From contig JBGSNU010000035.1 of NCBI GenBank assembly GCA_041739415.1, positions 27,031 through 91,030 on the forward strand: a stretch of DNA of 64,000 nt, written 5' to 3'. The notes beneath the pieces were generated by a model. That model was not told the origin of the DNA and made no database searches. It saw only the letters and a program-made list of their open reading frames with translations. Position numbers and translations under genes: made by a program. The DNA comes from Bdellovibrionales bacterium. Lineage in GTDB: Bacteria; Bdellovibrionota; Bdellovibrionia; Bdellovibrionales; UBA1609. Positions 230-62,930 of this stretch are shown here, one piece after another; position 1 is the stretch's first letter; each line of letters begins with the position of its first letter.

Positions 230-958
230 CTAGATGGAAATGGGCGCCTGTATCATAACTTTCAATTTATTCAGATTTTTGCGTAGGGCATGGCGCTGGT
301 TTGAAGAAAGATCAATAAACTCAATACCTAAACCCGCTGGATAGTTCCCTCGAGCTTCAGTTCTGCGCACCACGCGCGCTTTTGTTCGGACCTGTGAAAC
401 GGCATCAAAGGTTATTTTTAAGTTGATCCAGTCGCCGACGCTTAGACCTGGTTGCCCGGCAATGAACAACCCAGACTCAGAGACGTCAAAGGTTTCTGAG
501 CGCAGTGTCGCAAGTCGAATCCCGTCCATAGTCAAAGGCACATGCACCCGGTGTCGTTCCGCTCGGCGCCACCAGCGTCGATCGGGATGCCGCAGAATCC
601 ATTTCACCCGTTGGTCCAATAGCGGCAGGGTCGTGGCGGCAAAAACCAGGGTTGCGCCTGTCGTTGTGAGGAGTGAAAAATCTGTGGCAAAGTGGCCGAC
701 AAAGTAGTTGTTGGCCGCAGTGAGCACAATCAATGCGGGCACGGATATACGAAGCCAGGGCGATACCTGCCATAGCAATATGGCATTGGCGATCAGGCCG
801 CCAAATACCAAAAGATTTAGCCAAGTGAGTTTGTGCAAGATCGCCATAACTTCAAGTGGACTATGCCCATAAAGGTGCATGACTTGAACAGGCATAGAGA
901 GAGCGAGTGCCCAAAACCAAATGGCCATGAAGGTGATGGATCGCAGTCGCTTTGCCAT
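230..958 (-). CDS. Polytopic membrane protein with C-terminal PilZ (c-di-GMP-binding) domain
   Basis: 242 aa. The N-terminal ~120 aa are hydrophobic helices. The C-terminal part carries both PilZ signature motifs, RRAERHR (RxxxR) and DVSESG (DxSxxG), about 20 aa apart. Its ATG directly abuts the upstream gene's stop (TAAATG on the minus strand at 956-961). Confidence 0.8.
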   Translation of the reverse strand: MAKRLRSITFMAIWFWALALSMPVQVMHLYGHSPLEVMAILHKLTWLNLLVFGGLIANAILLWQVSPWLRISVPALIVLTAANNYFVGHFATDFSLLTTTGATLVFAATTLPLLDQRVKWILRHPDRRWWRRAERHRVHVPLTMDGIRLATLRSETFDVSESGLFIAGQPGLSVGDWINLKITFDAVSQVRTKARVVRRTEARGNYPAGLGIEFIDLSSNQRHALRKNLNKLKVMIQAPISI

Positions 959-2053
959 TTATTCCGCCTCGCCTTCGAAATGATCACAGTAGCTAATCAC
1001 TTGGTGCACGTACTTAGAGGCCTGGGTGAGAACATTATCCTTTAAGTAGTCGGCTCCCCGTCGCTCCAGCGCCTCCGCCACGCGTGCCGCTCCTGAGTTG
1101 TAGCTGGCCAAGATCACCTCACTAAATGAAGCTTCGGAGGGGCCAAGTCGACTCTCAATCAAACTTTGTTTATCTGGTCGTCGCCAGTATTGATTGAGAT
1201 ATTGAATGTAGGCGACGCCACCTTGAATACTTAGAGTTGGGTCCAGCCGCCATTCGTTTCCAGAGTGAATTTGCCCACCTAGCACTGCCATTTTTAAGAT
1301 GGGGAATGGCAAAGTGCTTGCGCCAGGATACCGAGGCCAATCTGAATATTGTTTAGAGATCTCTTGGTCGCCTAACGGTGTAACCTGGGTTAGTCCAAGC
1401 GCGCGGCTTGAGCTAACGGCAAGAGAGTTAAATCCAGACTCTTGTGCCACAATCGCGGCAATAAAAAATGGGTTGAGATTTTGTTCCATTGAGCTTTGAT
1501 TGATTTGCTGAATGACTTCAAAAGCAGGTCGAAAATCCGGAACACGAGAGATTAGACCCCGAGTATAGAAGGCCGAGCAGAGTGGTGGATGGTATTGTGC
1601 GGCGACCGAGGGTGCCTCGCTGTCACGTTTGTACGAGGCTTTGATGAGGTGATCTCGACTAGCGGGCAGACGCATATCCTTGGTCGTCCATTTGACCTCG
1701 CGTCTAAACGGATCAGAAGAAATTTCATAGGCCTGACTGAGAAAGCTAGCCGTCACATCTAGGCCGTTGTAGGTCAAAACAATGTTGGCGTCGTCTGGCA
1801 CCCCCATGGGATCCTCGACAATCAGATGAAAGCGGCTTGGCTTGTGCAGCACCTGGCGGTGAGGGCTGAAGCGAACCCGAATGTGTCGGTCGCTGTAGGC
1901 CGCAACGGTTCGCTTAATGCTTTTTTGTCCATCTTTATTAGCGAAGAGAGAAATGCTTCCAAATGGCGACATGGGACCGACGCAGCCCGAAGTGGTCAGG
2001 AGTATCAAGGTGAGAAAAAGTGGTTGAATGGCCCTCGACGTTCGACTAGTCAT
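959..2053 (-). CDS. Lipoprotein with C-terminal SLT-type lytic murein transglycosylase domain
   Basis: SLT motifs are present: AQESGFN (catalytic E-S), ALGLTQV (GLMQ-like) and ASYNSGAARV (AYNxG). The start is placed at ATG 2053 because MTSRTSRAIQPLFLTLILLTTSGC is a lipoprotein signal peptide with a lipobox. The track ORF extends to a GTG at 2206 (GTGA overlap with the upstream gene), which is the alternative start. Confidence 0.8.
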   Translation of the reverse strand: MTSRTSRAIQPLFLTLILLTTSGCVGPMSPFGSISLFANKDGQKSIKRTVAAYSDRHIRVRFSPHRQVLHKPSRFHLIVEDPMGVPDDANIVLTYNGLDVTASFLSQAYEISSDPFRREVKWTTKDMRLPASRDHLIKASYKRDSEAPSVAAQYHPPLCSAFYTRGLISRVPDFRPAFEVIQQINQSSMEQNLNPFFIAAIVAQESGFNSLAVSSSRALGLTQVTPLGDQEISKQYSDWPRYPGASTLPFPILKMAVLGGQIHSGNEWRLDPTLSIQGGVAYIQYLNQYWRRPDKQSLIESRLGPSEASFSEVILASYNSGAARVAEALERRGADYLKDNVLTQASKYVHQVISYCDHFEGEAE

Positions 2054-2202
2054 GCAGGCTCTATCGGCAGAAATGTCGAACCGTTTACGAGATTCGGCAT
2101 CGATCTCACTAAACAGATTTAAATGGATTGTCTCAATTGCTGAATCGAGACTGATTTGAAACGTATCGCGATTTTCTGTTGCATGTGAGATGCAAAAATA
2201 TT

Positions 2203-2466
2203 TCACTCGGTTTCTTCAACGGGCAACACACATTTGCCGTTCATCAACCTCGCCTTTTTTGGGCATTTGATGTCTGGCTGAGCTCGGCGTGCGATGACAT
2301 CCGAGGGCGCGTTTTCGGTCGGGGGCTCAGTGGCGACAGATTCGGTTTGTTCCGAATTTTTGGGCTCAGGCACAGGTGAAAGTGAAGGTGAGGAGCAGCC
2401 GGTGATGAATGTGAAAGTTAAAATGAGCGTCAAAATAGATATTGGGTGGAGCAAGGTGGTTTTCAA
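2203..2466 (-). CDS. Small lipoprotein, function unknown
   Basis: 87 aa. Signal peptide plus lipobox MKTTLLHPISILTLILTFTFITGC. TTG start with AAGGA 8 nt upstream. Pro/Ser/Glu-rich linker followed by a short Cys-containing C-terminus. Confidence 0.5.
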   Translation of the reverse strand: MKTTLLHPISILTLILTFTFITGCSSPSLSPVPEPKNSEQTESVATEPPTENAPSDVIARRAQPDIKCPKKARLMNGKCVLPVEETE

Positions 2467-2509: not shown

Positions 2510-3433
2510 TTAGTCTATGTTTGATGCCGGGGAGCGCTGTGAGTTTACAGGTCGACTTGCGCGGGGAAGAGTCTGTGAAAAGCGCTCCACTTCCGAACGG
2601 CCATGCTTGGATTCCAACGCTCGCAAGCCAAAGTGATAGCGGGCGGCCTGACTAAAGTAGTTGGTGAAAGTCGCATTGATCACACCCCCTCCGATGGCGC
2701 CAAGCACGGGCACCGCCTCGACCAGCATCTTTTCACTCACAACCACATTGAAGCGGGCCGCAATACGCGACAGGAGCTTTGTGACAATGGGCGCCACATT
2801 TTTTTGCAGTTCCATCGTCAGCTGACGCTGAGTTTTTTGGGCCAGGTAAGCCGCTGCGTCTCGAGTGAGTTTTGCAAATGCAGTTCTCGATGTCCAATAG
2901 GCGGAGCCGAGAGCATCATCGCTTTTGCTCGCGGGTGAGCCTAAACTCAATATGTATAGACACTCAAGTTGAGTCTGTGGATCGTTGAGGTCCATGCCCG
3001 ACTCATGTGCAATTTGCGCAATTGATCTCAAAATAATGGCGGTGGTGATTGGCAGCTCAACCGGCAATGACAGCATACCAAAAAATCCACCAGCCGCACC
3101 CACGCCAAACGAGGCGGCTGTGTGCCATCGCCCAATGGTCTGCGACGTGTCGCCCTTGGCTCGCCTCAAAGGGATTGTTCGCGTGACCTCTTGTAGGCCT
3201 CGGCGAAGTGCCGCCTCAGTTGCCGATTGAATTTTACGTTGGTGCCGCACCGGCAGTTTGCGAACGGCGAGCTCAACTGGCCGACCGACGCTGTTGGCAA
3301 GGCGAATCAAAAGGCTGGGGTGCTCCAAAAACTGCATGGCTTGGCGAATGAACGCCTCTTCCTCTTGCTGCAACTTCATAGATGTTTTATTACCGCGAGC
3401 CGTGTCGGTCCAACAACAACTTTTATCGTTCAT
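2510..3433 (-). CDS. EcsC family protein
   Basis: 307 aa. Family-like segments: LIRLANSVGRPVE..KLP, GAAGGFFGMLSLPVELPITTAIILRSIAQIA, VPVLGAIGGGVINATFTNYF..ARYHFGLRALE. The start is uncertain (ATG 3433 or ATG 3379; neither has a clear SD). Confidence 0.6.
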   Translation of the reverse strand: MNDKSCCWTDTARGNKTSMKLQQEEEAFIRQAMQFLEHPSLLIRLANSVGRPVELAVRKLPVRHQRKIQSATEAALRRGLQEVTRTIPLRRAKGDTSQTIGRWHTAASFGVGAAGGFFGMLSLPVELPITTAIILRSIAQIAHESGMDLNDPQTQLECLYILSLGSPASKSDDALGSAYWTSRTAFAKLTRDAAAYLAQKTQRQLTMELQKNVAPIVTKLLSRIAARFNVVVSEKMLVEAVPVLGAIGGGVINATFTNYFSQAARYHFGLRALESKHGRSEVERFSQTLPRASRPVNSQRSPASNID

Positions 3434-3677: not shown

Positions 3678-4712
3678 ATGACACGGGCGGTTTTCATTCG
3701 AAACGCACTCCTAGTTTTTGGAGCGCTGATATTCTCTTCAGGATTGAACGCCCGCACAGAAACCGCGTTTGGTTCAAGCAGCCCAGCTTCGCAGAGCGCC
3801 TATATGAATGCCGCGCAAGAGTGTGGTGAAACGATGCAACGTCGCACTCTCAACGAAACAACAGGAACAATGACCTACTGTGCTCGGGCTGTCAGGCGAA
3901 TGGTCGGCTGCTTCGCCTCAAGAATGGGTGTGCAGGATTGCAATGCCTATACGGCAAATTGTGGAGATGAAGGTAAGGACTACGTTGACTGTACGAATGG
4001 TGCATTGACGAAATGTGGATACAGAAAGGTGGATGGTGACTCGAATCTTTGCGCTGTGCCTGGAGCCATTCAGGCCTACCGGCAAACTTATACCAAAAAC
4101 GGAATAAAACACGGGCACGTGCAGTTTGGCTGCGGCACTCTTGCTGCGCCTCGATACTGCTCAGTCTATGACGGGCTGCTGACCACAATGTGGCCAGGGG
4201 ATCGCCTTCCCAGTTCCTGTTGGATTCCGACTTTCGCACCTGTGGACTTGGACTTTTATGCAGGAACAGCCACGCCGCGAGCGAGCGGGCGATCGCAAGT
4301 GGCATCGCCCTCTGTGCAGGAGCTTTTTCAAAGCGCAGCGGGGAGCAACCTCGATTTAGTAGGCTCGCAAAACGAAGAGCCCGATGTGAAGCAAGCGGCG
4401 ATTGAAGCAGCGATGCAAATTGCGATCGCTAAAATCGGTGCAGCGAACTCCAAACAAAGTCCCAGAGAGCGTGGGCAAGCTCGAGTTGTCGGCGTTAGGC
4501 GTCTTGGTGAGGCGAATGATGGTGCTGGCCTTTCCGCTGCGACTTTGGCTACGGGCAACCTCGGCACGGCGCCTATCGACGCACCGGCACCGGCAGTACG
4601 TAAGCCTGCGGCAAAATCTAAACGCAAGACTAAACCGAAAGCGCCACCTTCAGCGAAGCCCAGTGCAACACCTGCTGTTGCGCCGGCGGCTTTACCCAAA
4701 CCAAAGGAATGA
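3678..4712 (+). CDS. Exported Cys-rich protein with candidate Cys/His hydrolase motifs and an A/P/K-rich tail
   Basis: 344 aa. Signal peptide MTRAVFIRNALLVFGALIFSSGLNA. There are 11 Cys in the first ~180 aa. Motifs TYCARAVRRM (Cys68) and KHGHVQF (His145/147) are present. The C-terminal ~150 aa are low complexity (PAPAVRKPAAKSKRKTKPKAPPSAKP). Confidence 0.6.
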   Translation: MTRAVFIRNALLVFGALIFSSGLNARTETAFGSSSPASQSAYMNAAQECGETMQRRTLNETTGTMTYCARAVRRMVGCFASRMGVQDCNAYTANCGDEGKDYVDCTNGALTKCGYRKVDGDSNLCAVPGAIQAYRQTYTKNGIKHGHVQFGCGTLAAPRYCSVYDGLLTTMWPGDRLPSSCWIPTFAPVDLDFYAGTATPRASGRSQVASPSVQELFQSAAGSNLDLVGSQNEEPDVKQAAIEAAMQIAIAKIGAANSKQSPRERGQARVVGVRRLGEANDGAGLSAATLATGNLGTAPIDAPAPAVRKPAAKSKRKTKPKAPPSAKPSATPAVAPAALPKPKE

Positions 4713-4718
4713 TCAGGC

Positions 4719-5249
4719 ATGCGAAAATCTCATTTTAAAAAGTGTGTGTGGATTTTTTCAGCGCTCCTCATCTTTCAGGGGGCGCCAGGTTTGGCGGCAG
4801 AGACTAAGAAAAAATCAGGTGCTGAAAATCGTCTCCCGGCGGATTACAAAAAACTCAATTCAGACTGTGAGATTTGCCCGCAGTTGGATCAGCTCCGGCA
4901 GGAGTACAGCTTGGCCGAGACACCAGAAAAACGTCTCGACCGGGCCTTTGCTATTGGCAAGCATATCCGAACTTTGGCAGAGCAAAAGACGCAGCCTAAA
5001 GCCATTCACACGGCCATTCATTATTCAATCGACGCCTGCCTAGAAATTTTGCCAACTGACTTTGACCGCACGTGCATTTTCAGCTTGATCGAGGTTCGTA
5101 AAAAGTACCAATCTGCCTTTGATCCCGTGCTATGGCGATTTTCTAAAACTGCGCAAGAGCAGATCGTTGGCATCATTCGCGACATCATCAAAAACGGTCT
5201 GGCCCCCGGAGTTCAGGCGCCGGTCATTCGCGTTGTAAATGCCGACTGA
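4719..5249 (+). CDS. Exported hypothetical protein (predicted helical), tightly linked to the preceding gene
   Basis: 176 aa. Signal peptide MRKSHFKKCVWIFSALLIFQGAPGLAA. The ATG lies 7 nt after the upstream stop. No recognisable catalytic motif. Confidence 0.55.
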   Translation: MRKSHFKKCVWIFSALLIFQGAPGLAAETKKKSGAENRLPADYKKLNSDCEICPQLDQLRQEYSLAETPEKRLDRAFAIGKHIRTLAEQKTQPKAIHTAIHYSIDACLEILPTDFDRTCIFSLIEVRKKYQSAFDPVLWRFSKTAQEQIVGIIRDIIKNGLAPGVQAPVIRVVNAD

Positions 5250-5281: not shown

Positions 5282-6076
5282 CTAAAAATTCAGACCGATT
5301 CCACCTTGAATAATGGTGGTCGTGCTGGCCGCAAGCGTGAGCTCGTTGTCCGCGTCTGTGCCACCAGTGGCTTTGTCTGAGGCTTCAATGGTCCACTTGT
5401 GATAGGAAACAAAGACTGTTGTGGCCATGCCGAGCGCATTCGGCATGATGATCCCCAGTTCAACACCCAGCCCACCACCTTTGCGCTGTTTGAAGTCAAT
5501 ATCTTGACGAGCGCTGTCTAAGTCGGACAAGTGCACTTTGCTCGTGCCCCCACGCCAAATGTCGTATTCACCTTTTATATACACACTTCTTGTATGCAAG
5601 GTGACCAGCACTGGAATGTAGTTGTAAGTCGTGCGCTGGCGATAAGCTGTCTCGAGATCGTTGTACCAATAGCGTTGTCCAACTCCACCAGATACAATCA
5701 ACGGTCCGTAAAACAAATGGGCAAGACCCCTAAGGTCACTCACTTGATTGTTTGCAATGCCATACACCTCATCGCCTGTGAGGCTGGTGCCTTTGAAGTG
5801 CATCTGATCATCTTGATATTGACCGCCCGCACTGATCGCCAGATTTCCAAGTAAACCCAGTCCGAGTTCGCCTTGAACGCCCGGCAGTGTGCCCTTTTGC
5901 TCTGCCTTGACCTCTTTGTAGGTGAAGTTCGAATAGGTGTAAGCGGCCTTCAGCCACAGCCCAGGTGCCCCGCTTCGCCTTTGCGCCATTGCGACTTGGG
6001 GTAAAGCTATGACCAAAAACAGGCCGACCAAAGTGAGCACTTGAAAGTGAAAAACCGGGCGATTGTGAGACAACAT
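5282..6076 (-). CDS. Outer-membrane beta-barrel protein (porin-like), function unknown
   Basis: Alternating hydrophobic pattern, abundant G/Y/T, C-terminal GGIGLNF ending in Phe. The start is moved to ATG 6076 (GGAG 7-8 nt upstream), giving signal peptide MLSHNRPVFHFQVLTLVGLFLVIALPQVAMA. The track start is 6121. Confidence 0.6.
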   Translation of the reverse strand: MLSHNRPVFHFQVLTLVGLFLVIALPQVAMAQRRSGAPGLWLKAAYTYSNFTYKEVKAEQKGTLPGVQGELGLGLLGNLAISAGGQYQDDQMHFKGTSLTGDEVYGIANNQVSDLRGLAHLFYGPLIVSGGVGQRYWYNDLETAYRQRTTYNYIPVLVTLHTRSVYIKGEYDIWRGGTSKVHLSDLDSARQDIDFKQRKGGGLGVELGIIMPNALGMATTVFVSYHKWTIEASDKATGGTDADNELTLAASTTTIIQGGIGLNF

Positions 6077-6139
6077 TCGGGGGGCTCCTTTCATGCTATG
6101 CAGATCTATGCCAACAAACATTCCGAGATCGGAGTCCGT

Positions 6140-49045: not shown

Positions 49046-49121
49046 GCTGGTTTAGCTCAATTGGTAGAGCAGCTGATTTGTAATCAGCAGGTTGCGGGTT
49101 CGAGTCCCATAACCAGCTCCA
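49046..49121 (+). tRNA. tRNA-Thr (anticodon UGU)
   Basis: 76 nt. Acceptor GCTGGTT/AACCAGC, anticodon arm GCTGA-TTTGTAA-TCAGC, T-loop TTCGAGT, encoded CCA. One C-A mismatch at T-stem pair 50-64. Confidence 0.9.
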
Positions 49122-49130
49122 GTTTGATTC

Positions 49131-49216
49131 GGACAGGTGCCCGAGTGGCTAAAGGGGACGGACTGTAAATCCGTTGGCTTACGTCTACGTAGGTTCGAAT
49201 CCTACCCTGTCCACCA
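49131..49216 (+). tRNA. tRNA-Tyr (anticodon GUA), long variable arm
   Basis: 86 nt. Acceptor GGACAGG/CCTGTCC, anticodon loop CTGTAAA, long variable arm, T-arm GTAGG-TTCGAAT-CCTAC, encoded CCA. Confidence 0.92.
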
Positions 49217-49248
49217 CTTCAAGCCTGCAATGGTTCGGTAGTGCGCGA

Positions 49249-49325
49249 GCGGGAGTAGCTCAATTGGCTAGAGTATCAGCCTTCCAAGCTGAGGGTTGCG
49301 GGTTCGAGACCCGTCTCCCGCTCCA
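49249..49325 (+). tRNA. tRNA-Gly (anticodon UCC)
   Basis: 77 nt. Acceptor GCGGGAG/CTCCCGC, anticodon arm TCAGC-CTTCCAA-GCTGA, T-arm GCGGG-TTCGAGA-CCCGT, encoded CCA. Confidence 0.92.
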
Positions 49326-49371
49326 ATGTTTGTGTGGGTGTTGTTTTTGAATAATGCTTTGGGCAAATGAG

Positions 49372-49446
49372 GCCCATGTGGCTCAGGGGTAGAGCACACC
49401 CTTGGTAAGGGTGAGGTCGTGAGTTCGAGTCTCACCATGGGCTCCA
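49372..49446 (+). tRNA. tRNA-Thr (anticodon GGU)
   Basis: 75 nt. Acceptor GCCCATG/CATGGGC, anticodon arm CACCC-TTGGTAA-GGGTG, T-arm GTGAG-TTCGAGT-CTCAC, encoded CCA. Same Thr-Tyr-Gly-Thr-tuf order as the classical tufB cluster. Confidence 0.92.
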
Positions 49447-49615: not shown

Positions 49616-50806
49616 ATGGCTAAGGAAACATTTAAACGGGATAAGCCCCACGTCAACATCGGCACTATCGGTCACGTCGATCACGGTAAAACTACATTGA
49701 CCGCGGCAATCACCAGCGTGTTAGCCAAAAAAGGTGGAGCTAAAGCTTTAGCGTACGATATGATCGATAAAGCTCCTGAAGAAAAAGAGCGTGGAATCAC
49801 GATCTCCACTTCACATGTAGAATACGAGACGGCTAATCGCCACTACGCGCACGTGGATTGTCCTGGTCACGCCGATTACGTCAAGAACATGATCACCGGT
49901 GCAGCTCAGATGGATGGCGCGATTCTTGTTGTATCTGCCGCCGACGGACCCATGCCACAAACTCGCGAGCACATTCTGTTGGCTCGTCAGGTGGGTGTTC
50001 CCGCAGTTGTCGTTTTCATGAACAAAGTGGACATGGTTGACGATAAAGAATTGCTTGAGCTTGTTGAGTTAGAAGTTAGAGAGCTCTTGTCCAAGTATGA
50101 ATTCCCCGGCGACACAATCCCCATAGTTCAAGGTTCCGCTTTGAAGGCGCTTGAGGGCGACACAAGTGAAATCGGCGAAGGCGCTATCATGAAGTTGATG
50201 GATGCTTGTGACAATTACATTCCAGAGCCTCAGCGTGCGACTGACAAACCCTTCTTGATGCCCATCGAAGACGTGTTCTCGATCTCTGGTCGTGGAACAG
50301 TTGTGACTGGTCGTATTGAGCGCGGAATTGTCAAAGTTGGCCAGGAGATCGAAATCGTTGGAATCCGTCCCACTCAAAAGACTACGATCACGGGCATTGA
50401 AATGTTCCGTAAGCTTTTGGATGAAGGTCGCGCCGGTGACAACGCTGGATGTTTGCTCCGTGGAACGAAGAAAGAAGATGTTGAGCGTGGTCAAGTTATC
50501 GCGGCGACAGGCTCTATCAAGCCACACAAAAAGTTCAAATGTGAAGCCTACATCCTGACTAAGGAAGAAGGCGGACGACACACTCCCTTTTTCAACGGCT
50601 ATCGCCCACAGTTTTACTTCCGCACAACGGATGTAACTGGTGTGACAACCCTTAAGGCTGGAACTGAAATGGTTATGCCTGGTGATCGCGTTGAAATGGA
50701 AGTTGAGTTGATTGCTCCCATCGCTATGGAAAAAGAGCTTCGCTTCGCTATTCGCGAAGGTGGCCGTACTGTTGGCGCGGGAGTCGTAACAGCGATTGTT
50801 GAATAG
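49616..50806 (+). CDS. tuf: Elongation factor Tu
   Basis: 396 aa. G motifs [30 protein letters not shown] upstream. Confidence 0.99.
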
Positions 50807-50900: not shown

Positions 50901-50976
50901 AGGGCAGTAGCTCTAACGGTAGAGCGAACGACTCCAAATCGTTAGGTTGTGGGTTCGAATCCCTCCTGCCCTGCCA
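50901..50976 (+). tRNA. tRNA-Trp (anticodon CCA)
   Basis: 76 nt. Acceptor AGGGCAG/CTGCCCT, anticodon arm AACGA-CTCCAAA-TCGTT, T-loop TTCGAAT, encoded CCA. One U-U mismatch at T-stem pair 50-64. Canonical position between tuf and secE. Confidence 0.9.
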
Positions 50977-54620: not shown

Positions 54621-57600
54621 ATGAATTTGATTCCAGTGACTGCATCCAATCTGCGGATGCGTAGAAGTTTTGCCAAAACCCGCCATCTCATCGACATCCC
54701 CAACTTAATTGAACTGCAAAAGAAATCTTATGAGGCCTTTTTGCAGAGAGACGTAGATCCCGACCGTCGTGGTGATCTGGGATTGCAGGGTGTATTTAAG
54801 TCCGTGTTTCCAATTTCTGACTTTAACAACACGGCAAGCCTAGAGTTTGTGAGTTTCACGTTAGAGCCAGCCAAGTACGACGTAGACGAGTGTCGTCAGC
54901 GAGGCATGACTTTCGCGGCACCTATCAAGGTCACACTTCGATTGATAGTTTTTGATGTCGATGAAGAAACGGAAGCTCGGTCCATTCGCGACGTAAAAGA
55001 GCAAGAAGTGTATCTCGGTGAAATTCCGCTCATGACGTACAATGGGTCGTTTATCATCAACGGCACTGAACGAGTTGTCGTCAGTCAGTTGCACCGGTCT
55101 CCCGGTGTGTTCTTCGACCATGACAGTGGCAAGAACAACGCCAGCGGCAAATTGATCTACTCAGCTCGAGTGATTCCTTACCGCGGCTCCTGGTTAGACT
55201 TTGAATTCGACCAAAAAGATTTGATTTATGTGCGCATCGATCGTCGACGTAAGTTTCCAGTTACAATTTTGCTTAAGGCTCTTGGCTACACCACTGAGCA
55301 GCTACTTGAGCAGTTCTACCACCTCGATTTTGTAAGCATCAAAAAGGATGGCAAAATCTTCCGCTCGATTGATATCGAGCGGATGGCAGGACAACGAGCG
55401 CTCTCTGACATCGTCGATCCAAAATCGGGTGAAGCGATCGTCAAGGCCGGCCGTCGTATCACTCGCGCGGCTGTGAAGCGTGTTAAGGCACTCAATCTGA
55501 CCGAAATTGAAATTTCTCGAGATGACCTCGATGGTAAAGTGATTGCCAAGCCAGTGATTGACGAAGCCACTGGTGAGATCATTGCCGACGTGAACAGTGA
55601 GCTCAGCGCGGCTATCTTGGACAAAGCTCGTGAGGCTGGTATCCAAGAGGTCACGGTTATCTTTTTTGATGGTTTGGCGATAGGTCCTTATCTCAGAAAC
55701 ACGCTGCTCGTAGATAAAGTGAACACCAAAGAAGAATCCTTAGTAGAGATCTACAAGCGACTTCGCCCAGGTGAGCCGCCCACAGTAGAGGCTGCTACCG
55801 GATTCTTCAAACGACTCTTTTTTGATCCCGAAACCTATGACCTTTCCGAAGTTGGACGATTGAAAATCAATCATCGCTTCAGCATCCCCTTTGAAGAGAC
55901 ACCCGTTGAGCACCGCACATTGACTGAGAAAGACATTCTTTCCGTCGTAAAAACGCTGATTGACCTCAAGAATGGCCAAGGGCAGATCGATGATATCGAT
56001 CACTTGGGCAACCGACGAGTTCGTTCGGTTGGTGAATTGCTGGAGAATCAATATCGAATTGGTTTGGTGCGGATGGAGCGGGCGATTCGTGAGCGTATGA
56101 GCTTGCAAGACGTCGAAACCATGATGCCGCACGATCTGGTGAACGCTAAGCCGGTCAATGCAGTTGTAAAAGAGTTTTTTGGCTCGAGCCAGTTGTCACA
56201 ATTTATGGATCAAACCAACCCCCTTTCTGAAATTACGCATAAGCGACGTCTTTCAGCGCTGGGTCCTGGTGGTTTGACTCGTGACCGCGCGGGTTTTGAG
56301 GTGCGCGACGTGCATCCAACCCACTACGGTCGTATTTGCCCGATCGAAACTCCAGAAGGTCCAAACATCGGTTTGATTGCCTCTCTCGCGACTTTTGCTC
56401 GAATCAATCAATATGGGTTCATCGAGACGCCTTACCGTAAAGTTGAAGAAGGTGCGGTTCGAGACGACATTCTTTACTTATCGGCGCTCGAAGAAAGTGG
56501 TCATCACATCGCTCAAGCCGGCAAAGATGTTGAAGCCAACAAAATTATTCAAGACAGCATCACAGTGCGCGTGAATGGTGAATACGAGTCGATCGAGAAA
56601 GACAAAGTCTCTCTAATGGACGTGTCGCCGTCGCAGCTTGTGTCGATTGCCGCGAGTCTTATTCCGTTTCTAGAGCATGATGATGCCAACCGCGCTCTCA
56701 TGGGTTCAAACATGCAACGGCAGGCTGTGCCTCTACTCAAGTCTCGCGCTCCACTCGTTGGGACGGGTGTCGAGCGTTTGGTGGCTCGAGATTCCGGAAC
56801 TTCAGTCGTTTGCACAAATGACGGTGTCGTTGAGGAAGTAGACGCCGCTCGAGTCGTTGTTCGCCGCTTCGCAAAGGGTGGAGAGCTCGGCGCAAACGTC
56901 GATATATACAACCTGATTAAATATCAGCGCACGAATCAAAATACGTGTTTCAACCAAAAGCCGATCGTCAATGTGGGCGACCGAGTGAAGCGCGGTGATG
57001 TGATCGCAGATGGTCCATCCACTGAACTGGGTGAGCTGGCACTTGGGCAGAACATCTTGGTCGCGTTCACTCCCTGGATGGGCTACAACTTTGAGGATTC
57101 CATCTTGATCTCTGAGCGCTTACTGCGTGAGGACGTTTACACGTCTGTTCACATCGAAGAGTTTGAGTGCGTCGCCCGAGACACGAAGCTCGGCAAAGAA
57201 GAGATCAGCCGTGACATTGCAAACGTAGGTGAAGAGGCCCTCAAGGACCTCGACAATTCAGGTATTATCCGCATCGGCGCTGAAGTAAAGCCTGGCGACA
57301 TCTTGGTCGGTAAAGTCACACCAAAAGGTGAGACTCAGCTTTCACCCGAAGAAAAGCTCTTGCGGGCCATCTTCGGTGAAAAAGCCGGCGATGTTCGAGA
57401 CACTTCGCTTCGAGTGCCATCCGGCGTTTACGGAACTGTAATTGATGCGCAAGTTTACTCACGTGAGGCGTCTGACAGAGACGAGCGTTTGCAAACAATT
57501 ATCGATGCGAAACGCAAGAAGTTAGAAAAGGACTTCGGCGTTGAACAAAACGTCATCAAGAACAATGCGCTCGACAAACTCAAAGAACTACTTGTTGGCA

Positions 57601-58784
57601 AAGTGACCAATGGAGTTCTTTTGAGCGAAGACGGCTCCGATAAACTCTTGTCTAAAGGTCAAACGATCAAAGGCGAAGATCTCGAGACGATTCCTTTCGA
57701 GCTGTTGTCTTACGTTCCACTTGAGGCCGAGCTGGAGTTCCAGGTTCAGCGGCTTGTCGATGGCGCGCGCAATCAGTTGGATGCTGTGAAAATGGTATTC
57801 AACGAAAAGATCGATCGACTCACCAAAGGTGACGAGTTGCCTCCCGGCGTTATTAAAATGGTAAAGGTTTACATTGCCATCAAGCGTAAGCTTCAGGTCG
57901 GAGACAAGTTTGCCGGTCGACATGGTAACAAGGGTGTGATTTCAAAGGTATTGCCTGTCGAAGATATGCCCTATCTCGCCGATGGATCCCCAGTTGACAT
58001 GGTCCTCAATCCACTCGGCGTTCCTTCTCGAATGAACATTGGACAGATCTTAGAGGTCCATTTGGGATGGGCCGCTCGCAGTCTCGGCCAGCAACTTGAG
58101 AAGTACATCGAAGATTTTAAAGCGGATGCAGCTCGTAAGCAGATCGCCGAGATCTTCCAAGAAGACAAAGACATAGTGAAGGCCATTGAAACAGCCGACG
58201 AAGAGTCGCTTCTACGAGTGATCCGCCGAATGAAGGACGGAGTTCACGTCGCGACACCTGTCTTTGACGGTGCGAAAGAAAAAGACGTGAAGGAACTTCT
58301 CAAACGGGCAGGTTTGCCACTTTCAGGTCAAACCGTGCTGTTTGACGGCCGCAGTGGTGAGCCCTTCCAAACGCCAGTGACCGTGGGCATAATGTACATG
58401 CTCAAACTGCATCACTTGGTGGAAGAGAAGATTCACGCTCGTTCGATCGGTCCTTACTCACTTGTGTCGCAGCAGCCTCTGGGTGGTAAAGCTCAATTTG
58501 GTGGCCAGCGATTGGGAGAGATGGAAGTTTGGGCGATCGAGGCTTACGGCGCTGCTTACTCCTTGCAGGAATTCCTCACGGTGAAGTCGGATGACGTCGC
58601 TGGTCGAACTCGCATGTATGAGAGCATCGTGAAAGGCGAGAACGTCCTCGAGCCCGGATTGCCCGAATCATTCAATGTTTTGGTCAAAGAGCTGCAAAGC
58701 TTGGCGATGAACGTTCAATTGATGGAATCCGATATTTTAACTGAGCCCGCCCACAACCACGTGGACGAGCAACAGCCTTCGTAA
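54621..58784 (+). CDS. rpoB: DNA-directed RNA polymerase subunit beta
   Basis: 1387 aa. AAGGAG SD. Conserved blocks include [75 protein letters not shown] and [12 protein letters not shown]. Confidence 0.99.
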
Positions 58785-58799
58785 AGTGAGAGGTGACAT

Positions 58800-61700
58800 T
58801 TGAAAGATTTATTGAACTTTTTTGACAAGCCCAAAGATCCGCTTTCTTTTGATGCAGTCCGGATTTCTCTAGCCTCGCCCGAAATGATCCGCGATTGGTC
58901 ATTCGGTGAAGTGAAGAAGCCAGAAACTATCAACTACCGCACGTTCAAGCCCGAGCGAGATGGCTTGTTTTGTGCCAAGATTTTCGGTCCGATCAAGGAC
59001 TACGAATGTCTTTGCGGCAAATACAAGCGCATGAAGTATCGTGGAGTGATTTGCGAAAAGTGTGGAGTCGAAGTTACGCAGACGAAAGTGCGTCGTGAGC
59101 GGTTAGGTCATATCGAATTGGCCACGCCCGTAGCCCACATTTGGTTTTTGCGCTCGCTCCCGAGCCGCATTGGAAACCTGCTAGACATGTCCCTTAAGGA
59201 CGTCGAGCGAGTTCTCTATTGTGAAGCATACATCGTGACTGATCCCATGGACACAACTCTAACTGAAGGACAAATTCTGCCCGAAGAAGCATTTCAAAAT
59301 GCCTTGGCGGAGTTCGGTCCCAACTTCAAAGCGGCAATGGGTGGCGATGCCGTCCGCGATATCCTCCGCAAAGTTGACCCTGAATTTTTGTCGAGAAAAC
59401 TCCGACTCGATCTCAAAGAGACCAAGTCAGAGGCTCAGATCAAGAAGCTCACTAAGCGCTTGAAAGTGGTTGAGGCATTTAAGAACTCAATCAACAAACC
59501 TGAGTGGATGATGCTCGAAGTTGTTCCTGTGATTCCGCCAGATCTACGACCTTTAGTGCCCTTGGATGGTGGTCGATTCGCGACTTCAGACTTGAACGAT
59601 CTGTATCGCCGAGTCATCAACCGAAACAACCGATTGAAACGTCTGCAAGAGCTCAATGCGCCGGACATTATCATCCGCAACGAAAAGCGTATGTTGCAAG
59701 AAGCGGTCGATGCTCTGTTAGACAACGGTCGTCGCGGCAAGACCTTCACAGGACCCAACAAGCGCCCACTTCGATCACTGCGCGATATGCTCAAAGGTAA
59801 GCAGGGTCGATTCAGACAAAATTTGCTCGGTAAACGAGTCGACTACTCTGGCCGTTCCGTAATCGTGGTTGGTCCAAACCTAAAGCTACACCAGTGTGGT
59901 TTGCCGAAGAAGATGGCACTCGAGCTTTTCAAGCCATTCGTCTACAACAAGCTCGAAGAAAAAGGCTTTGCCACCACAATCAAGCAAGCCAAAAAGTTGG
60001 TGGAAACAGAGAGCGTCGAAGTTTGGGATATCCTTTCTGACGTTGTGAAAGAGCATCCCGTCCTGTTGAACCGTGCACCGACTCTGCATCGCCTCGGAAT
60101 TCAAGCATTTGAACCGTTACTGCACGAGGGAAAGGCGATTCAGCTTCACCCCCTCGTTTGTACGGCTTTCAACGCCGATTTTGACGGAGATCAGATGGCC
60201 GTTCACGTGCCGCTATCCATCGAGGCCCAGGTCGAAGCTCGCGTTCTCATGATGTCTACAAACAATATTCTCAGCCCAGCGAACGGCAAGCCTGTCATCA
60301 ATCCCACTCAGGATATCGTTCTCGGGATTTATTGGATGACTCGTGTGCGTCCAGGTGCGAAAGGAACGGGCCGTGTTTTTGGCTCCGTCCTTGAGGTCCT
60401 TTATGCATATGAAAACGGCAATGTCGATCTGCAGGCTACGATCAGATGCCGTATCAACGGAAAGTTAGAGTCCACCAGCGTTGGGCGCGCGATTCTGAGC
60501 GATATCGTCCCGAGCGAGGTGCCATTCGAGTCTGTGAACCGAGTGATGAACAAGAAAACTCTGGCTGAACTGATCGACAAAACCTTCCGTTTAGCTGGAG
60601 CGAAAGCCACAGTCATTTTAGCAGATAAGTTGATGGAGCTCGGATTTAAATACTCCACCCAGGGCGGTATTTCGATCTGCGTGGATGACTTAGTTATTCC
60701 CCAACAAAAAGTTCCGTTGCTTCAAGCCGCCAACAGTCAGATCAAAGAGATCCGCAATCAGTACGACGAAGGTTTGATCACAGACGGTGAGCGCTACAAC
60801 AAGGTCGTGGATATCTGGGCTCAATGCGCCGACAAAGTCGCAAAAGAGATGATGAGTCAGCTCGAGAAGCAGACCTTCACAGTGAACGGTGAGCGTGTTG
60901 AGAGCGCTAGCTTCAACCCCATATTCATCATGGCAGATTCTGGAGCCCGAGGTTCTGCGGCTCAGATTCGTCAGCTGGCTGGAATGCGAGGATTGATGGC
61001 CAAGCCTTCAGGTGAGATCATCGAGACACCGATCACGGCGAACTTCCGCGAAGGTCTTTCAGTTTTGGAATACTTTATTTCCACTCACGGAGCTCGAAAG
61101 GGATTGGCCGACACCGCACTAAAAACGGCTAACTCTGGATACTTAACTCGCCGATTGGTAGACGTGGCTCAGGATATTGTCATCACTGAGATGGACTGTG
61201 GCACGAGCGTCGGCATGGAAATCCGGCCCCTTCTCGAAGGTGGCGAGATTATTCAACCCCTGGGCGATCGAATCTTGGGCCGTACGGCTCTTGAGGACGT
61301 GATTGACCCCGTTTCCAACGAAGTGGTTTGTCGAAGCAATGAGGAGATCACCGAGCGCATAGTTCGTCGAGTTGAAGAGGGCGGCGTCGATATGGTTAAA
61401 ATCCGTTCGACTCTGACTTGCAAAACTCGCCGAGGCGTCTGCGTCAAGTGTTACGGCCGTGATCTCGCCCGCGGTAACACGGTCAATATGGGTGAAGCTG
61501 TTGGTATTATTGCGGCTCAGTCCATCGGTGAGCCCGGCACCCAGCTGACCATGCGAACGTTCCACTTAGGTGGAGCCGCGTCTCGTGCAGTTGAACAGTC
61601 TGTTCACACCGCTCGTTATGATGGTCATATCAAATTTGCTGGCGTTCAGCTGGTCGCCAATCGTAGCGGCAAACTCACTGTTATGAACCGAAACGGCGAT

Positions 61701-62930
61701 ATGATGATCATCGATGCTTCAGGGCGCGAGCGCGATCGTATGAAGGTCGTTTATGGGTCTATCCTAAAATACAAAGAAGGTGATGAAGTCAAAAAAGGCG
61801 ATGTATTGGCCGAGTGGGATCCCTACTCCAATCCAATCGTGGCCGACCTCACGGGTGTGATTCAGTTCCAAGACATCGAAGAAGGTGTGACTATGACCGA
61901 ACAGGTCGATTCCGTAACTGGTTTCGCCACGAAGGTCATCACCGAGAGCAAAGGTGCGGACAATAAGCCCACGGTGTTGATCACTGATGGCAATGGCAAG
62001 GTCTTAGACCTGCCTAACCGCTCTGTTCCTTGTCGATATGTCATCCCAGTTGGTGCGCAGCTCTTGATCAGTGACGGTCAAGAGGTCCATGCGGGGGACG
62101 TGGTAGCGAAGATTCACCGAGAAACTTCAAAGACTCGCGATATCACTGGTGGTTTGCCTCGCGTAGCCGAGCTTTTTGAAGCTCGGAAGCCAAAAGAGGC
62201 CGCCATTATTTCCGAGATCGATGGCTATGTGACGTTTGGTAAAGACGTTAAAGGTAAGCAGCGTGTGATTGTAACCCCAGAAGTGGGTGAACAGCGCGAA
62301 TACCTGATTCCAAAAGGGAAGCATGTGGCGGTTCGAGAGGGCGAATTCGTTCGCGCTGGTGAAGCTCTTATGGATGGTCCAAGCAATCCCCATGATATCC
62401 TTCGCGTTCTTGGCGATCGGGCGCTTTCTTCGTACCTGGTCAACGAGATTCAAGAAGTTTACCGACTTCAGGGTGTGGGAATTAACGATAAGCACATCGA
62501 AGTTATCGTTCGCAATATGCTCCGTAAGGTCGAGATCGAAGACCCAGGTGACACTCGGTTTTTGGCAGGTGAGCAAACTGAGAAGTTTGATCTTATTGAC
62601 GAAAATGACCGCGTGGTCAAAGAGGGCGGCCGTCCGGCGACGTTCGAGCCTCTCCTCCTTGGTATCACTAAGGTTTCGCTTAGTACCGACAGCTGGATTT
62701 CAGCGGCCTCCTTCCAAGAGACCACAAAGGTTCTTACGGAAGCTGCTGTTAACTCCAAAACCGACGGACTTCGCGGCCTGAAGGAGAATATTATCATGGG
62801 ACGTCTGGTGCCTGCCGGTACCGGTCTCGGTGCATACAAGCGTTGGAAGGTCATTGTTGAGGATGAAGTTGTACCAGCTTCGTCCTTCCTCCCAGGTCCA
62901 ACTAGCGCTTCAGGATATCCGCTCAACTAA
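58800..62930 (+). CDS. rpoC: DNA-directed RNA polymerase subunit beta'
   Basis: 1376 aa. TTG start with GAGGTG upstream. Zinc-binding [23 protein letters not shown], catalytic [12 protein letters not shown], trigger-loop/bridge-helix regions. Confidence 0.99.

Follow-up and report, generated by a model that had tools for sequence, protein, structure and literature searches.

In Bdellovibrio, self-protection is exemplified by the DD-endopeptidase Bd3459, which adjoins the ankyrin-repeat inhibitor Bd3460 (PMC4686830). Secreted papain-fold proteases have co-transcribed inhibitors in the staphopain/staphostatin, SpeB/Spi, and Bacteroides Bfp/Bfi systems, which show that one function can be filled either by a cis-acting prodomain or by an inhibitor supplied separately in trans (PMC3462683). 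Cpe1 and Cpi1 form a papain-like protease toxin-immunity pair in which Cpe1, a C39-like cytoplasmic enzyme, acts on GyrB/ParE and is delivered via the type VI secretion system (T6SS) or contact-dependent inhibition (PMC12136450). Here we analyze two adjacent genes, A and B, in a 64,000-nucleotide stretch of DNA from a Bdellovibrionales bacterium (contig JBGSNU010000035.1, positions 27,031 to 91,030; hereafter the window). On the basis of homologues, structural models, and analogy with described systems, we propose tentatively, giving the idea not quite an even chance, that A is a secreted CHAP-like thiol hydrolase and B its cognate partner, which would hold A inactive or correctly folded.

The protein A family and its CHAP-like domain

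Pfam and NCBIfam searches gave no match for either A or B, and word-indexed homology searches started from A, B, or the family alignment found, apart from the queries themselves, one further protein (P0028). An exhaustive HMMER scan with residues 27-200 of A recovered 28 cluster representatives with E values of 1e-26 to 6e-5 and 34-49% identity over the whole domain. All of these homologues come from metagenomes or metagenome-assembled genomes (MAGs), with one or two sequences per cluster, and are unnamed or labeled "hypothetical". Together with the window protein they make up the 29-member family considered here. A viral contig scan with a tighter A alignment found no viral locus, so that a phage origin is unsupported; a metagenome scan contributed one extra locus. 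To judge from these searches A and B belong to unannotated families without solved structures, and together they look like a new two-gene enzyme/partner family. An earlier interpretation of the window made from its letters alone (the sequence-only reading) had anticipated an uncharacterized family of this kind, and Pfam, NCBIfam, and PHROGs indeed hold no annotation for it.

The window protein contains 11 cysteines (residues 49, 68, 78, 88, 95, 105, 113, 125, 152, 161, and 181), all of which are family-wide features, and only two histidines (residues 145 and 147). The segment TMTYCARAVRRM begins at residue 64 and NGIKHGHVQF at residue 141, which places Cys68 and His147 79 residues apart. The number of cysteines, this spacing, and an A/P/K-rich tail agree with the sequence-only reading, which had also likened the surroundings of Cys68 and of His145 and His147 to catalytic motifs. 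Two of those three residues stand up in the 29-member alignment, His147 being invariant and Cys68 at least 90% conserved within the family motif T-M-C-G/A-x-A-V, but His145 is unconserved. G129, G142, G146, and C181 are likewise invariant, and C78, C88, C95, C113, C125, T139, S162, Y164, and P173 are at least 90% conserved. E149 is common in the family and is Gln in the window protein. Cys152 and Cys161 are absent together in three members, in which the odd Cys count is kept, and a disulfide between these two residues is therefore probable. The conserved disulfide pattern would imply an oxidizing location. The suggestion that an odd Cys count leaves one free thiol is weakened by a 12th Cys, which 11 of 26 members carry where the first helix ends (reference residues 53-57).

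Export of both proteins is predicted from their N-termini. By inspection A has a Sec-like positive n-region and hydrophobic core (peak 12-residue hydropathy of 2.27) followed by LNA and then Arg, and B has a Sec-like positive n-region and hydrophobic core followed by GLA and then AE. A signal-like hydrophobic N-terminus is found at the equivalent place in at least 22 of the 29 A members, and a signal peptide in 8 of 8 unfused B homologues. The public gene call of A (P0001, 302 residues) begins at Met43, by which the signal peptide is lost; 3678 is the better start because so many homologues have the signal-like segment. The public calls of P0027 and P0008 also begin downstream of the likely start, without a signal peptide (L003:5779-6000 and L005:617-745), and P0041 (345 residues) is the correctly started form of P0027.

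Matches to the Pfam CHAP family (PF05257) were detected in 14 of the 29 members at 14-25 bits (best E 3.3e-5, 24.7 bits), with the gathering threshold of that family at 26 bits. The matches span profile positions ~20-70, corresponding to the PGAV.AY...GHVEFV hairpin that includes the His147 region. None of the 29 members matched NlpC/P60 (PF00877) at E values up to 10, and none matched the Tae4 Pfam family.

The AlphaFold2 model of A, built on the family alignment, has a predicted local distance difference test (pLDDT) score of 86.4 and a predicted template-modeling (pTM) score of 0.78. Its helices comprise residues 36-57 (with C49) and 68-82 (with C68 and C78), followed by a disulfide-rich loop carrying C88, C95, C105, and C113 and by strands at residues 115-119, 131-134 (PGAIQAY), 147-151 (H147), about 160-164 (C161, S162, and Y164), and 180-184 (C181). 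Helix 68-82 starts exactly at Cys68, and strand 147-151 starts at His147. As modeled, a Cys at a helix N-terminus together with a His at the start of a strand resembles the papain-fold arrangement, and Cys68 and His147 show the placement expected of CHAP enzymes, with Cys at a helix N-terminus and His on a later strand. A Foldseek search against predicted viral structures (BFVD) gave a phage baseplate-hub protein as the best match (E 3.9e-3, probability 1.00), followed by a tail protein, CHAP-domain proteins, a papain-fold deamidase toxin, a Josephin domain, and a Lysin A peptidase domain. Among solved structures the top weak matches were the CdiA-CT toxin (8ssm), Cpe1 (9l5u), and Tae4 (6ijf_C, E 0.91). 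The fold matches of the A model are thus weak but consistently of papain/CHAP type. Alignment of the A family with three phage-type CHAP domains by hhalign was not significant (E 0.063, probability <1%) and was used for residue correspondence, not as evidence of homology. This alignment pairs His147 with the catalytic His117 of LysK, and Cys78, not Cys68, with LysK Cys54. On structural grounds in the model we favor Cys68 as the probable nucleophile, with Cys78 as the alternative.

We conclude from profile matches and the model that A probably contains a highly divergent, disulfide-rich CHAP-like papain-fold domain and that it falls outside the curated CHAP, NlpC/P60, and Tae4 families. Like the CHAP domain of LysK (PF05257; PDB 4csh), A has a hydrophobic strand, a turn, and a G-H-V/I strand, in which His147 aligns with LysK His117, together with a conserved Cys at the start of an upstream helix; CHAP proteins also share the exported or extracellular, wall-active context. 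Unlike CHAP domains, A has 11 conserved cysteines (about five disulfides) and, after the Cys helix and before the sheet, a Cys-rich insertion of ~25 residues. Cys and His are 79 residues apart in A (69 if counted from C78), as against 63 in LysK, and A differs further in its lack of a conserved Glu/Asn third residue and in having an obligate partner gene. A CHAP protein, Bd2744, is noted in a Bdellovibrio proteome paper (PMC12546842).

The sequence-only reading had assigned A to the superfamily of papain-fold peptidoglycan amidases, including Tae4-type effectors. The sub-threshold CHAP matches in 14 of 29 members and the papain-like arrangement of the model favor the fold class, but neither the NlpC/P60 and Tae4 Pfam searches nor any significant match to a solved structure does so. 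A as a Tae-type T6SS effector was rejected on the basis of its Sec signal peptide, the lack of a Tae4 Pfam match, and the lack of T6SS genes nearby. No T6SS or other secretion-system genes flank the pair in the window, and the related loci contain no T6SS genes.

Protein B and its genetic linkage to A

The AlphaFold model of B (pLDDT 81.5 overall and at least 90 in the bundle; pTM 0.74) has helices at residues 53-65, 69-88, 96-110, 117-129, 131-139, and 143-158, and residues 1-35 have pLDDT values below 50. B had been described as lacking any motif, which does not hold for the family: a CxxC pair (C50/C53), at least 90% conserved, caps the N-terminus of helix 1, and a block DFD...FD(Y/N)VFWRFP follows. 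The conserved residues are C50, C53, I83, D114, D116, L123, R127, F134, D135, V137, Q146, and P168.

Linkage of the two genes, also part of the sequence-only reading, was found in every locus where it could be examined. A B homologue lies directly downstream of A on the same strand in 9 of 9 unfused loci, the window included; one further A locus ends at a contig edge that cuts off the downstream gene. The partner genes of the related loci encode 158-169 residues and either overlap A by 1-4 nucleotides or lie 2-58 nucleotides away. Their homology to B is evident from BLASTP (E 1e-11 to 6e-38) and from profile comparison (E 1e-35 to 1e-68). When the B profile was run over the 1,566 open reading frames (ORFs) of all loci, matches were limited to A-linked positions and one fragment. 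This fragmentary B-like ORF (L012:2116-2385, minus strand, 90 residues, profile E 1e-12) covers the FDYVFWRF region alone and lies ~3 kb upstream of an A-B pair. In the window the stop codon of A is separated from the ATG of B by 6 nucleotides, and an AAGGA ribosome-binding site for B lies within the 3' end of A, from which co-transcription or translational coupling of the two genes is implied.

Two lineages, P0027/P0041 and P0028, encode A and B as a single polypeptide with B at the C-terminal end. The P0027/P0041 form is complete and exported and recurs in independent assemblies. The P0028 protein has an internal hydrophobic stretch, ISLSLIENLFALAFASVD (L002:667-760, residues ~223-250), which can be aligned to the signal peptides of unfused B proteins; this relic suggests that P0028 arose by a recent gene fusion. 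P0028 lacks the CxxC of B and also C152/C161 of A.

Pairwise identities of the A domain vary together with those of B (Mantel r 0.49, p 0.005); B is the faster to diverge, with a mean identity of 30% as against 38% for A. Two loci are syntenic with the window, L005 (EcsC-A-B-(PIN)-OMP-ABC-ABC-S8, where OMP denotes an outer-membrane protein) and L009 (PilZ-SLT-lipoprotein-EcsC-x-A-B). Relative to the window, A is 35-36% and B 38-39% identical in these two loci, whereas the flanking proteins are 60-85% identical. The pair therefore appears to evolve much faster than its neighbourhood or to be swapped as a cassette, and fast divergence of this sort is typical of antagonism or interaction modules. 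Of the properties expected of an effector/immunity or enzyme/inhibitor pair, same-strand downstream adjacency, predicted export of B to the compartment of A, and co-variation with accelerated divergence are present. Strict adjacency, fusion, and co-variation together strongly imply that A and B bind one another. The fusions would argue for physical association and leave the direction of B's effect aside; with B attached in cis, they are less easily reconciled with immunity of the classical, separable type than with a subunit, a chaperone, or an inhibitor resembling a prodomain.

Proposed function and alternatives

In the mechanism that we propose, A and B would form a two-gene operon whose products act together outside the cytoplasm. 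A would be Sec-exported, and its core of ~150 residues would fold with four or five disulfides. A Cys-His pair, most likely Cys68 and His147, would then hydrolyze an amide bond in an oxidizing compartment, the likeliest substrate by analogy with CHAP enzymes being a peptidoglycan stem peptide or amide. B would be co-expressed, Sec-exported, and bound 1:1 to A, and would most likely keep A inactive or correctly folded in the periplasm of the producer, either as a self-protection protein or as a prodomain-like inhibitor. It would be supplied in trans in the window and in cis in the fused relatives. We infer that A is catalytic, which Cys is its nucleophile, what it acts on, that B binds it, and in which direction B acts. 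An immunity role of B would fit the linkage, export, co-variation, and fast evolution of the pair. The earlier interpretation was largely right on fold class and linkage and wrong on Tae-type membership, and the immunity role that it suggested for B is a possible one.

An inhibitory, self-protective, or prodomain-like B would fit the fast evolution of the pair and the precedents of Bd3459/Bd3460 and the co-transcribed protease inhibitors. As with Bd3459/Bd3460, a Bdellovibrio-like host carries an exported wall enzyme (putative for A) adjoining an exported helical protein that could shield the producer. Unlike that system, where the enzyme is a PBP4-type serine endopeptidase, A would be a CHAP-like thiol enzyme, and B is not an ankyrin protein (no Pfam match), inhibition by B being proposed by analogy. 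The likeness to the staphopain, SpeB, and Bfp systems lies in the coupling of a gene for a papain-fold Cys enzyme (putative for A) to a small partner, with cis and trans forms that mirror the fused and split forms of A and B. In contrast, staphostatins are cytoplasmic β-barrels and Spi is cytoplasmic, whereas B is exported and all-helical and has no relation to them in sequence or fold.

Two toxin-immunity systems offer a similar comparison. Like Tae4-Tai4, the pair consists of a small papain-fold Cys-His enzyme (putative for A) followed by a gene for a small periplasm-targeted partner, and evolves fast. T6SS effectors start out from the cytoplasm of the producer, whereas A comes with a Sec signal of its own and many disulfides; B matches none of the Tai structures and in some lineages forms one protein with A. 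Cpe1 (9l5u), the second-best structural neighbour of the A model with a template-modeling (TM) score of 0.49 on the target, is likewise a Cys-His(-Asp) toxin followed by an immunity gene. However, this match is not significant (E 0.48), and A is Sec-exported and disulfide-rich.

A number of findings weigh against the proposal of a CHAP-like hydrolase held in check or in shape by B. No A member exceeds the 26-bit CHAP cutoff, and the window protein itself has no CHAP match even at E values up to 10. The search of solved structures with the A model gave nothing significant (best E 0.28). PDB sequence searches with the family profile, a tighter profile, and P0007 returned nothing apart from one chance-level match to a coat protein (E 0.31), and NCBIfam and PHROGs searches over all A members returned nothing coherent. 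After the hhalign comparison the nucleophile is ambiguous between C68 and C78, and the alignment has no conserved Asp, Asn, or Glu at His+11 to +17, the position of the third CHAP residue. The 12th Cys, which faces Cys68 across the predicted helix hairpin, could pair with the supposedly free Cys. For B, the fold search returned generic helical-repeat proteins alone (E at least 0.28), so that it resembles neither an immunity nor an inhibitor fold so far known, and fusion in cis is unusual for a true immunity protein. Neither an export route beyond the periplasm nor a target was identified. Genes for SLT, MltA, and M15 proteins occur near the pair in some loci alone, and the link to peptidoglycan is one of analogy and loose context.

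The main rival, possible if on the unlikely side, is that B is a helper: either a dedicated chaperone for folding or redox control, or a subunit that activates or targets A, with the A-B complex or fusion as the active enzyme. The natural fusions speak for it, as subunits and chaperone-like domains commonly end up joined to their partners and immunity proteins do not. Its CxxC, at least 90% conserved at a helix N-cap, might assist the five disulfides of A or keep or reset the single catalytic thiol in the oxidizing periplasm. Such help would answer the need of A for about five disulfides and one reduced Cys, and the extra Cys that half of the A family has opposite C68 hints at redox chemistry there. 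However, B has no thioredoxin fold, its fold matches include no known redox protein, and the P0028 fusion lacks the CxxC yet keeps the rest of B, so that the CxxC is dispensable there. Fast divergence of both partners also fits antagonism better than housekeeping folding. An unlikely variant, with B as a neutralizer, makes A a papain-fold enzyme that acts on proteins, such as a protease, a deamidase, or a transglutaminase-type toxin or processing enzyme directed against envelope proteins of prey or competitors. The weak structural neighbours of A do include C39-like protease toxins (Cpe1, 9l5u, and CdiA-CT, 8ssm), a glutamine deamidase toxin, and Josephin (PMC12136450), and Cys-His geometry alone does not fix the substrate. 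The sole sequence-level signal is nevertheless to CHAP and not to the C39, C58, or deamidase families, and those toxins act in the cytoplasm without disulfides or Sec signals, whereas A appears built for an oxidizing compartment.

It is quite improbable that A lacks catalytic activity and serves as a secreted, Cys-rich scaffold (a pseudoenzyme, an adhesin, or a module for binding), in which every conserved Cys would be structural and His147 structural or metal-binding; A and B would then form a structural heterodimer. In members with 12 cysteines all of them could be tied up in disulfides, the third catalytic position has no conserved acidic or amide residue, and every CHAP match is sub-threshold. 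Against this, an invariant His147 in a GHV strand matching the CHAP catalytic strand, together with a conserved Cys at a helix N-terminus, is hard to explain without catalysis, and the core keeps an odd Cys count even where C152 and C161 are lost together. That the ORFs or their pairing reflect chance or an annotation artifact has a negligible probability: the start at 3678 is not preceded by a canonical Shine-Dalgarno sequence, the public gene call differs, and promoter and terminator scans of the locus were uninformative, but many conserved homologues, confident predicted folds, and conserved synteny for both genes refute it.

Within the proposal of a CHAP-like hydrolase and its partner, a more specific form is a long shot. 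A might be a redox-latched lytic weapon specific to Bdellovibrio-like predators, with Cys68 capped by the 12th Cys or, in other members, guarded by the CxxC of B; A would be inert in the periplasm of the producer and active only after release or in prey. If true, the pair would be the first of a new enzyme/guardian family, controlled in a way not described for wall hydrolases.

Enzymes that kill Gram-negative cells are sought in predatory and Bdellovibrio-like bacteria, as are the self-protection proteins with which such enzymes can be produced safely. A would extend the CHAP/papain superfamily to a compact five-disulfide scaffold for oxidizing compartments. The logic is a known one, that of effector and immunity protein or of protease and inhibitor; the disulfide-rich CHAP-like scaffold, the helical partner, and Sec-based export would be new. 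A B protein that inhibits A would provide a second, unrelated example of predator self-protection, and one that serves as a redox or folding helper would represent a periplasmic chaperone of a new, private kind. Because B is strictly linked to A, fused to it in some lineages, and co-varies with it, a specific interaction of the two proteins can be tested directly. For now the impact is moderate, as the A-B family is rare, has no cultured member so far, and is assigned its function by comparison.

Locus features and genomic context

The two adjacent exported ORFs are present as the sequence-only reading described them, and both have conserved homologues. Their features and the genes upstream are listed in Table 1.

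Table 1. Features of the A-B locus and upstream genes, in window coordinates
Feature	Position	Strand	Description or basis
ORF A	3678-4712	+	344 aa
A signal peptide (predicted), residues 1-26 (MTRAVFIRNALLVFGALIFSSGLNA then R)	3678-3755	+	Arg3/Arg8, hydrophobic core, LNA cleavage-like site
Linker, A residues 27-43	3756-3806	+	Length and sequence vary across family; model pLDDT 58-81
Conserved Cys-rich CHAP-like domain, A residues ~44-190	3807-4247	+	Homologues, CHAP matches, AlphaFold
Codon of Cys68, favored nucleophile	3879-3881	+	At least 90% conserved; first residue of model helix 68-82
Codon of Cys78, alternative nucleophile	3909-3911	+	Paired with LysK Cys54 by non-significant hhalign alignment
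Codon of His147, putative catalytic base	4116-4118	+	Invariant (29/29); G-H-V-E/Q-F block
A low-complexity A/P/S/G/K-rich C-terminal tail, residues 191-344	4248-4709	+	Composition; basic RKPAA...K-rich end
A stop, 6-nt spacer, and B ribosome-binding site	4700-4718	+	Sequence
ORF B	4719-5249	+	176 aa
B signal peptide (predicted), residues 1-27 (...LLIFQGAPGLA then AE)	4719-4799	+	Inspection and hydropathy
Mature B, predicted six-helix bundle	4800-5249	+	AlphaFold and family conservation
PilZ	230-958	-	
SLT lytic transglycosylase	959-2206	-	
87-aa lipoprotein	2203-2466	-	
EcsC	2510-3433	-	

The last 155 residues of A contain 33 Ala, 16 Pro, 13 Ser, 12 Gly, and 12 Lys. Comparable tails, with a weak helix-like patch and a basic end, are limited to a subfamily comprising P0008, P0009, P0018, P0030, P0013, and P0023. 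The basic RKPAA...Lys-rich patch itself is common to P0008 and P0018, which come from syntenic loci, and is missing in most members.

In the window the pair is neighboured by PilZ, SLT, EcsC, ABC transporter, and S8 protease genes. A related genome, a Pseudobdellovibrionaceae MAG, fits the Bdellovibrio-like setting; it keeps the PilZ-SLT-EcsC block and lacks A and B. The PilZ-SLT-lipoprotein-EcsC block is syntenic in L001 and L009 at 46-63% identity, and the synteny with L001 stops exactly at the EcsC/A boundary. L001, from a related MAG, carries an insert of ~3.4 kb between the lipoprotein/EcsC genes and SLT (L001:11146-14308), with a 390-residue ORF and helix-turn-helix-type ORFs, which is not present in the window.

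Downstream of B, the minus-strand ORF at 5282-6121 encodes a 279-residue protein with a signal-like N-terminus and a β-rich, OMP-like character. It has no Pfam match, and a 47%-identical orthologue occupies the same position in L005. Farther along, five tRNA genes, a 396-residue EF-Tu-sized ORF, and two rpoB/rpoC-sized ORFs of ~1,380 residues lie within 49046-49443, 50901-50973, 49616-50806, and 54621-62930. The tRNA cluster and these ORFs, which match EF-Tu, rpoB, and rpoC in size and order, indicate that the window is chromosomal and that a core region lies here.

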